From positions 25,906-89,905 of the forward strand of contig LBRD01000002.1 of assembly GCA_000991245.1 (NCBI GenBank): DNA of 64,000 bases, given 5' to 3'. The position numbers and the translations under genes were made by a program. The stretch comes from Parcubacteria group bacterium GW2011_GWC1_36_108 (GTDB lineage Bacteria > Patescibacteriota > Minisyncoccia > Moranbacterales > GWC2-37-73). The notes beneath the pieces are model-generated. The model saw nothing but the letters and a program-made list of their open reading frames with translations. It was not told where the DNA came from and ran no database searches. Shown one piece after another: positions 15,469 through 15,586 of the stretch (positions are counted from its first letter, which is position 1; every line of letters begins with the position of its first letter).

Positions 15469-15586
15469 ATTCCTGCGAAGGCAGGAATCTAGGATATTAT
15501 CGCATTGTTAATTTAAGTTCATTTACTGTTTTATAAAATATAAGTGTTCTAAATCCTGGATTCCGGATCAAGTCCGGAATGACAAA
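15469..15586. mobile_element. Complete MITE-like element with TTGTCATTCC / GGAATGACAA terminal inverted repeats and subterminal hairpins
   Basis: TTGTCATTCCTGCGAAGGCAGGAATCTAGG ... AATCCTGGATTCCGGATCAAGTCCGGAATGACAA. 118 bp. Confidence 0.75.

Follow-up and report, generated by a model that had tools for sequence, protein, structure and literature searches.

We analyzed a 64-kb stretch of DNA (referred to as the window; 36% GC) from contig LBRD01000002.1 of Parcubacteria group bacterium GW2011_GWC1_36_108, in which short hairpin repeats are dispersed. The window is rich in tRNA genes and has a type IV secretion system (T4SS) cluster of the Gram-positive type, with genes for pilins, PrgI and TraC-like, VirB4-like and TrbL-like proteins. 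Contigs identical or nearly identical to the window are supplied by groundwater and bioreactor metagenomes and metagenome-assembled genomes (MAGs); L-numbers below denote these and other contigs compared with the window. The relatives of the window are named Candidatus Moranbacteria, a lineage of the Candidate Phyla Radiation (CPR; Patescibacteria), and four syntenic Moranbacteria genomes (L306-L309) encode TraC-like proteins that are 84-98% identical to the window's. The hairpins belong to two classes (Table 1), namely class A, which is NTS-like, and class B, which is of the boxC or triplex-motif type. An earlier note on this DNA had described the class-A copies as a family of miniature inverted-repeat transposable element (MITE)-like sequences. 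As judged from their sequences, they do not form a new family but join the known dRS3/NTS/SRM hairpins as a new member from the CPR.

The analysis upheld the repeat family of the earlier note: its elements are small, palindromic and non-coding, have inverted ends and are dispersed over the window. The string TTGTCATYCC occurs nine times in the window, where 0.31 occurrences are expected and a count of nine was reached in none of 100 shuffles; when one mismatch is allowed, the count is 31, relative to a chance expectation of 10.3. The right ends were grouped by a repeat finder as a single family, D12. What had been taken for terminal inverted repeats are in fact autonomous hairpin modules that also occur singly, since each "end" is a complete hairpin, TTGTCATTCC-stem/loop-GGAATCCAG. 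The unit has oriented flanks, TTGTCAT-TCC[stem-loop]GGA-ATCCAG; read as its reverse complement, it gives the right end, CTGGATTCC[...]GGAATGACAA. Full copies (n = 3) are inverted pairs of hairpins that fold as three-way junctions, the remaining copies are single hairpins, and folding z-scores range from -2.5 to -4.5. For a pairing test and a covariance model, 13 class-A copies with a 7-bp stem were aligned from the window and its relatives. Bases are paired in 97.8% of cells, and in four stem pairs both partners vary (14 doubly changed cells), a level reached in none of 500 shuffles; pairing collapses when the 3′ partner is slid along the alignment. The stems differ between copies while pairing is preserved, as had been proposed. 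Upstream of the stem, TGTCAT is invariant in 13 of 13 copies, and the downstream ATCCAG/ATCTAG is nearly so. Eleven hairpins were detected in the window by the covariance model, including three outside its training set (31963-32021, 51571-51609 and the expanded 50720-50819).

Some class-A copies separate co-directional genes, one is in a divergent promoter region and others are within open reading frames (ORFs). All three complete copies previously placed at 15469, 31964 and 37056 are real, with ends refined as listed in Table 1. The first sits between metallophosphoesterase and uracil-DNA glycosylase (UDG) genes, both on the minus strand. The second had been said to overlap the stop codon of the PrgI gene; it merely abuts the TAA (31963-31965). 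Its left hairpin (31968-32017) is expanded, with the stem ATCCCGCA/TGCGGGAT, and the dRS3 core is exact in the right one (32041-32071), ATTCCCGTTTTCACGGGAAT. Two of the supposed half copies, at 22640 and 51517, proved to be single right-end hairpins, the former in the divergent promoter region of AP-endonuclease and metallophosphoesterase genes. The third, at about 45053/45063, was rejected as a 10-13 nt match that lacks a hairpin and was not detected by the model; this stretch is conserved as TTGTCGTTCC in a relative that is ~88% identical. The degenerate hairpin at 51575 is an addition made by the covariance model. Three copies had also been placed within the T4SS-linked ORF 49496-51178, for which no NCBIfam family was found. 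Three in-frame hairpin modules are indeed present, two of them single class-A hairpins, and the module at 50354-50413 belongs to class B. One of these two class-A hairpins is translated as NLDSRLRGNDN and contains an exact dRS3 core, and in the other, ATTCCC and GGGAAT enclose two inner hairpins. GTCAT is on the minus strand in all six single hairpins (22646, 50283, 50354, 50722, 51518 and 51575) and GC skew is positive across the whole window, but six hairpins, three of them in one ORF, are too few to interpret.

Table 1. Hairpin repeats and candidate nuclease genes in the 64-kb window.
Feature	Position	Strand	Support and details
Full class-A element, inverted pair	15464..15585 (122 bp)	.	46.2 + 48.4 bits; fold z = -4.5; left 15464-15494 (GTCAT on +), right 15555-15585 (GTCAT on -), 60-nt AT-rich core
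Single class-A hairpin TTCTGGATTCCGGATCAAGTCCGGAATGACAA	22646..22677	-	model hit, 48 bits
Full class-A element between PrgI and TraC-like gene	31968..32071 (104 bp)	.	
Compact full class-A element, comM-G5 spacer	37059..37131 (73 bp)	.	
Single class-A hairpin, in frame in ORF 49496-51178	50283..50313	-	best model hit, 49.5 bits
Solo class-B module, in frame in ORF 49496-51178	50354..50413	-	TCTCTCCTC-loop-GAGGAGAGA, second hairpin, GAGAGGT
Expanded class-A hairpin, in frame in ORF 49496-51178	50722..50814	-	model hit, E = 0.08
Single class-A hairpin between pilin genes, exact dRS3 core	51518..51548	-	46.1 bits
Degenerate single class-A hairpin GATTATGAAACAAGTTCAGAATGACAC	51575..51605	-	28.5 bits, E = 1.3e-5; outside training set
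Left class-B arm, DUF559 cassette	52640..52693	+	
DUF559 (Vsr-like PD-(D/E)xK endonuclease) gene	52667..53068	+	Pfam PF04480, 6.3e-36; PDB 3hrl, 5.9e-23
Right class-B arm, DUF559 cassette, ends in GGGGAGAATGACAAGG	53070..53125	-	
Single-domain GIY-YIG protein, 78 aa	7919..8155	+	Pfam PF01541, 9.7e-17

Several hairpin repeats of the same design have been described in other bacteria. The core of the Neisseria dRS3 is a 20-bp palindrome, ATTCCC-N8-GGGAAT (PMC1797815). The NTS, CGTCATTCCCGCGMAVGCGGGAATCYRG, is bound and cut as single-stranded DNA (ssDNA) by SsnA, a small GIY-YIG nuclease that cleaves beside the bound hairpin and for which three bases upstream of the palindrome are critical (Chenal et al., 2025, PMC11893778). 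Many bacteria, Wolbachia, Rickettsia and Sphingomonas among them, have NTS-like "Ssn-related motifs" (SRM), which cluster around small GIY-YIG genes (ssnA); in N. meningitidis, SsnA action reduces the integration of NTS-bearing transforming DNA (PMC11893778). Neither CPR bacteria nor DUF559 are mentioned in that work (PMC11893778). Copies in the window such as TTGTCATTCCCGCGTAGGCGGGAATCCAG fit the dRS3/NTS motif. Exact dRS3 cores are present in three copies (32047-32066, 50289-50308 and 51524-51543), and near matches in others (ATTCCTGC..GCAGGAAT, ATTCCGGA..TCCGGAAT and ATCCTCAG..CTGGGGAT). The window copies have the oriented, non-palindromic flanks of the family, with (C)GTCA upstream and TCYRG downstream, and the published SRM pattern, HGTCWYN(0-2)YYVSBRHN(0-5)WNVSBRGN(0-2)RNCYNB, matches twice (32043-32070 and 50285-50312), compared to 0.04 matches in shuffles.

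The class-A motif occurs across phyla, in hundreds of metagenome and viral contigs that are unrelated and range from 28 to 71% GC. CTGGATTCCC-N8-GGGAATGACA was found in at least 120 stretches of IMG/VR viral contigs (42-71% GC) and TTCTGGATTCC-N8-12-GGAATGACAA in at least 120 metagenome stretches (28-66% GC), samples from which neither copy numbers nor a taxonomic census can be derived. Interiors are paired in all of the listed metagenome stretches, ~40% of which have an inverted partner within 250 nt, and stems known from the window (e.g., GGATCAAGTCC) recur in unrelated contigs. When inverted pairs 150-2500 bp apart were screened in NTS-bearing contigs, a recurrent class emerged in which hairpins ~310-345 bp apart enclose a GIY-YIG protein of ~98 aa with the tail KKWxRxWK...NPxWxDL. 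Autonomous-looking NTS-ssn-NTS units of this kind were found in L216, L219, L229, L281 and L023. Ssn-like proteins fall into thousands of clusters, most of them from short contigs, and one such protein is annotated from a CPR MAG (Portnoybacteria).

Comparison with these systems brings out what is shared and what is particular to the window. Like NTS/SRM repeats (PMC11893778), the class-A unit is an oriented hairpin, GTCAT-TCCC-stem/loop-GGGA-ATCYRG, that occurs in multiple copies, as inverted pairs and at variable loci, and whose ends elsewhere bracket small GIY-YIG genes. It differs by its CPR host, by a 5′ flank of TTGTCA instead of CGTCA, by copies in frame inside ORFs, and by several stems that are T-rich or expanded and fall outside the published pattern; no Ssn gene was found in the window. 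With the Neisseria dRS3/NIME arrays (PMC1797815) it shares the exact core in three copies and the position of hairpins beside short, variable and mosaic spacers that are exchanged between strains. In contrast to those long arrays, the window has isolated pairs and singles, in a small genome of 36% GC from another phylum. Likewise, repetitive extragenic palindromes (REP) and BIMEs associated with RAYTs (IS200/IS605-like Y1 transposases) are hairpin repeats without target-site duplications that have a conserved short flank beside the stem, occur as singles and inverted pairs, and can have a nuclease gene between their own repeats. However, their motif is another one and their partner nuclease has a different fold; no Y1 (IS200/IS605-like) transposase domain was found in the called genes of window 4974-62019. 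Rickettsia palindromic elements (RPE) are known to sit in frame within protein-coding genes without destroying them. The in-frame hairpins of ORF 49496-51178 and of a UvrD gene in L127 resemble RPE in this insertion habit, and Rickettsia is named among the SRM-rich genera (PMC11893778).

Class-A repeats are dynamic among near-identical and syntenic Moranbacteria genomes, and the presence/absence polymorphism that the earlier note had suggested looking for was found, together with replacement polymorphism. In the comM-G5 spacer, window positions 37044-37139, including the element, are replaced in L003-L005 by an unrelated 202-bp palindrome that has no further copy in the window; in L004, the flanks of this swapped cassette are 100% identical to the window over 11.5 kb upstream and 6 kb downstream. 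L135 is identical to the window from 51523 onward, and its upstream part is unrelated (GatC), with different genes and a compact full pair, so that synteny breaks inside the 51518..51548 hairpin. Within ORF 49496-51178, a 108-bp in-frame segment with the expanded hairpin (50726-50833), bounded by CTGGAT/CTAGAT, is present in the window and absent from L131 and L127, whereas an 87-bp in-frame hairpin module is present in both of these and absent from the window. The L127 ortholog of the 50283-50313 hairpin has decayed (NLNSSLHGSRN vs. NLDSRLRGNDN), and L127 also has an in-frame hairpin within an intact UvrD-like gene of 775 aa, vs. 730 aa for the window version. Among the syntenic genomes, the PrgI-TraC spacer is empty (12-22 bp) in L306, L308 and L309, and holds a full element with other stems in L307. 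At the 22646 site, L307 has a different stem with a conserved flank, L309 a loop-expanded hairpin, and L306 and L308 have none. Per ~20 kb of syntenic sequence, hairpins number five in the window, four in L307, one in L309 and zero in L306 and L308.

As a separate observation, the spacer downstream of comM contains a different long palindromic insert (~100-290 bp) in almost every lineage (L003-L005, L306, L307 and L309) and is only 22 bp in L308. It looks like a hot spot for insertion or replacement.

Taken together, we consider it probable that the class-A elements are NTS/dRS3-type SRM hairpin repeats of Candidatus Moranbacteria; they would be nicked in trans by an Ssn-type nuclease, and their copies would be spread, replaced and deleted by repair. 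The nicking model draws on the Neisseria work and on the NTS-ssn-NTS units. The basic unit is one oriented DNA hairpin, of which two inverted units with a short spacer form the "MITE-like" copies of 73-122 bp, and which also exists in single and loop-expanded form. Hairpins would be extruded on ssDNA during replication, transformation or conjugation, recognized by a small, hairpin-specific GIY-YIG nuclease of the Ssn type and nicked beside the GTC flank. The nuclease could be encoded elsewhere in the genome or be brought in by invading NTS-ssn-NTS copies. Nicking followed by repair, template switching or gene conversion would then spread, replace or delete copies, creating recombination hot spots that shape the integration of incoming DNA; as a side effect, incoming ssDNA might be fragmented at hairpin sites.

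Other explanations were weighed against this model. Classical MITEs, i.e., internally deleted derivatives of insertion sequences (IS) with DDE transposases, moved in trans by cut-and-paste through TTGTCATYCC/GGAATGACAA terminal inverted repeats, would account for small elements with inverted ends and an AT-rich core, and for their presence or absence at orthologous sites between relatives. In addition, 4-nt direct repeats were seen, post hoc, 0-2 nt from the ends of four full copies in the lineage. However, direct repeats of at least 4 nt flank 13 of 67 inverted pairs vs. 11.4 when flanks are permuted, and the idea that they are target-site duplications, which the earlier note had raised as a check, was dropped because this test lent it no support. 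The only conserved flank of the 67 pairs is TT|GTCAT...ATGAC|AA, with T at position -1 in 62 and at -2 in 49. No transposase is annotated in the window or its annotated equivalents, the genes between inverted ends elsewhere encode small GIY-YIG nucleases rather than transposases, and each "end" also stands alone as a functional-looking hairpin. The strict MITE label therefore fails, and such an origin seems very unlikely. Equally improbable, in our view, is that the copies act at the RNA level, as intrinsic terminators, REP-like 3′ hairpins that stabilize mRNA, or a small RNA. Their hairpins are stable and some lie just 3′ of stop codons (31968, PrgI; 37059, comM; 15585, metallophosphoesterase gene), yet none is followed by a T-run, the tails being GACAA or CCAG, and none was among the terminator-like sites in 15000-33000, where a nearby canonical terminator (22755-22778) was detected. 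The copies are not ordinary terminators, which the earlier note had named as the finding that would refute its reading. Copies also stand in a divergent promoter region (22646) and in ORFs, in both orientations relative to transcription; no Rfam family matched them, and the identical motif occurs in genomes of 28-71% GC in all contexts.

Passive landing pads or recombination sites would fit the use of dRS3 as a phage integration target (PMC1797815), as well as the synteny break and cassette swap exactly at or around hairpins, and the window does contain an Xer-like tyrosine recombinase gene (43850-44815). This gene, however, is syntenic in all relatives, even those with zero hairpins, the window contains neither an IS110-type gene nor a prophage, and differences in copy number and in-frame copies in ORFs would be left unexplained. 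We regard this view as unlikely too, if marginally less so than the preceding two. Some observations weigh against the nicking model itself. The exact SRM pattern is found in only two of the 11 copies, the others being off by a few positions. The L135 junction comes from a metagenome assembly, and at ~29 bp the shared repeat falls short of the k = 141 that the contig name (k141_...) implies. Ordinary homologous recombination or repeat slippage, with no dedicated enzyme, could yield the polymorphisms. Since no mechanism of mobilization has been established for NTS/SRM repeats even in Neisseria, spread by nicking is something we infer. Finally, the 64-kb window has no bona fide Ssn gene, and its only candidate, the 78-aa GIY-YIG protein (Table 1), lacks the KKWxRxWK...NPxWxDL tail of NTS-flanked Ssn proteins, is only distantly similar to them, and is encoded by a gene without flanking class-A hairpins in the window.

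This 78-aa protein, which was noticed through annotated homologous contigs, is 29-33% identical to NTS-flanked Ssn-like proteins, with NTS-flanked GIY-YIG ORFs from contigs serving as proxy reference sequences. No NCBIfam family was found for it, and its sole PDB match is a weak one to UPF0213. By sequence, it is a weak candidate for the partner of the class-A repeats. On one side of the gene is an intact tRNA-Leu, and on the other a truncated copy of tRNA-Leu(tag), comprising its 5′ part and an extra hairpin, CCTGCCTGCCGGCAGGCAGG; this segment (window 7826-8244) looks like a small cassette integrated into a tRNA gene.

CPR bacteria, with genomes of ~1 Mb, are believed to rely on the uptake of DNA, and mobile DNA is generally regarded as scarce in them. 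The repeats described here extend the NTS/SRM hairpin family into this radiation, and the metagenome strain series, with its swap between identical flanks, its breakpoint within a hairpin and its in-frame gains and losses, offers direct natural evidence that hairpins drive local genome change.

The second class of hairpins brackets a DUF559 gene, whose true start is likely at 52703. The earlier note had regarded this arrangement as a composite copy of the same element; it belongs instead to a separate family, that of the boxC or intrastrand-triplex motif. Each class-B arm comprises a hairpin with a pyrimidine stem, TCTCCCC/GGGGAGA, a second hairpin, and GAGGGGT, with the G-rich side toward the gene. 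The order of pyrimidine arm, loop, purine arm and G-rich third segment that defines the boxC/triplex layout is present as TCTCCCC-TCAGAT-GAGGGGAGA ... GAGGGGT, and the triplex itself is predicted. The in-frame module at 50354..50413 is 82% complementary to the left DUF559 arm (repeat I1). This module has the class-A flank TTGTCATTC, which is found on two of the three class-B copies in the window. The DUF559 cassette is absent from relatives L127 and L129. No DUF559 gene was found in the 240 NTS-bearing contigs listed, so that DUF559 was rejected as a class-A partner and the two repeat families are distinct.

We compared 40 loci with DUF559 homologs (including L146-L182) from CPR, Alphaproteobacteria, Chloroflexota, Bacteroidota and others, of which 26 were testable. 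Inverted flanking repeats with a score of at least 12 occur at 22 of these 26, compared to one of 49 shifted controls. The arms have a common architecture, CCYTCTCC-loop-GGAGARGG with an optional second hairpin, followed by GGGGTGAGG, and the boxC/triplex layout was seen in 37 DUF559 loci. The DUF559 gene lies between inverted copies of its own motif in all four of the named groups and partly so in E. coli (L310), where TM_ECO has the same layout and ycjD has such motifs at its 3′ end. The boxC/intrastrand triplex motif TM_ECO has been linked to local genome instability in a study that mentions no nuclease and leaves the function of the repeat unexplained (Holder et al., 2015, PMC4666352), and DUF559 genes are 14-fold enriched among predicted inversion targets (PMC9881135). 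Class-B arms resemble boxC/TM_ECO (PMC4666352) in CCCTCTCC-loop-GGAGAGGG with a G-rich third segment after it, in tandem inverted configurations and in the link to instability. They differ in bracketing a DUF559 gene, here and at most of the testable loci, and in the TTGTCATTC flank of window copies.

A link between DUF559 and boxC/triplex motifs is not described in the searchable literature that mentions DUF559, and the association appears to be unreported. By analogy with Ssn-NTS and RAYT-REP, it is a serious possibility, though somewhat short of an even chance, that DUF559 proteins partner the boxC/triplex motif as a second and independent family of nucleases associated with repeats. The far more numerous solo motifs may be derivatives of DUF559-bracketing units. 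Because both repeat classes have acquired the TTGTCATTC flank in this Moranbacteria lineage, the flank hints at a common cleavage or mobilization step. We view the DUF559 association as a more novel lead than the class-A family itself, and as a candidate explanation, open to test, of how boxC/triplex repeats arose and what they do.

Other repeats and insertions were noted in the window and its relatives. AT-rich intergenic repeats with an 8-nt periodic GGAAATT/AAAAATT pattern lie at 11382, 22575-22627, 23580-23688, 35404-35508, 43736-43852, 55787-55903, 58239-58362 and 62540-62656; two copies (43737-43845 and 55788-55896) are 88% identical, and one stands before the 22646 hairpin in three lineages. 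A 16-bp palindrome, TGTTCCACGTGGAACA, has nine perfect copies within 1.2 kb (2421-3612; zero expected), all inside a Wzy_C-like ORF of 578 aa in the part of the window with the lowest GC content (29.5%). The copies might form an array of binding sites or an origin-like region, or represent one more stop-free palindrome that was inserted in a gene. At 17973-18019 and 20640-21574 there are tandem units of ~315 bp, in each of which the conserved hairpin GGCAAGGAAGTTGAAACCAACTTCCTTGCC precedes a small ORF (55-107 aa). The region 11573-12627 has a group I intron (Rfam, 73.5 bits) between tRNA-Val and tRNA-Met and, after it, an ORF that encodes a helix-turn-helix (HTH) domain. L139 and L145 diverge precisely where tRNA-Gly ends at its 3′ side (12818 in the window) and have HD, HTH and reverse-transcriptase genes instead. 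Upstream of rplS, L136 (14840-14936) has a 98-bp insertion relative to window 10613/10619, with flanks 100% identical; this insertion, with CCCGTTAGAAAAATAC as its inverted ends and a GTTGAC duplication, looks like a classical MITE of another kind.

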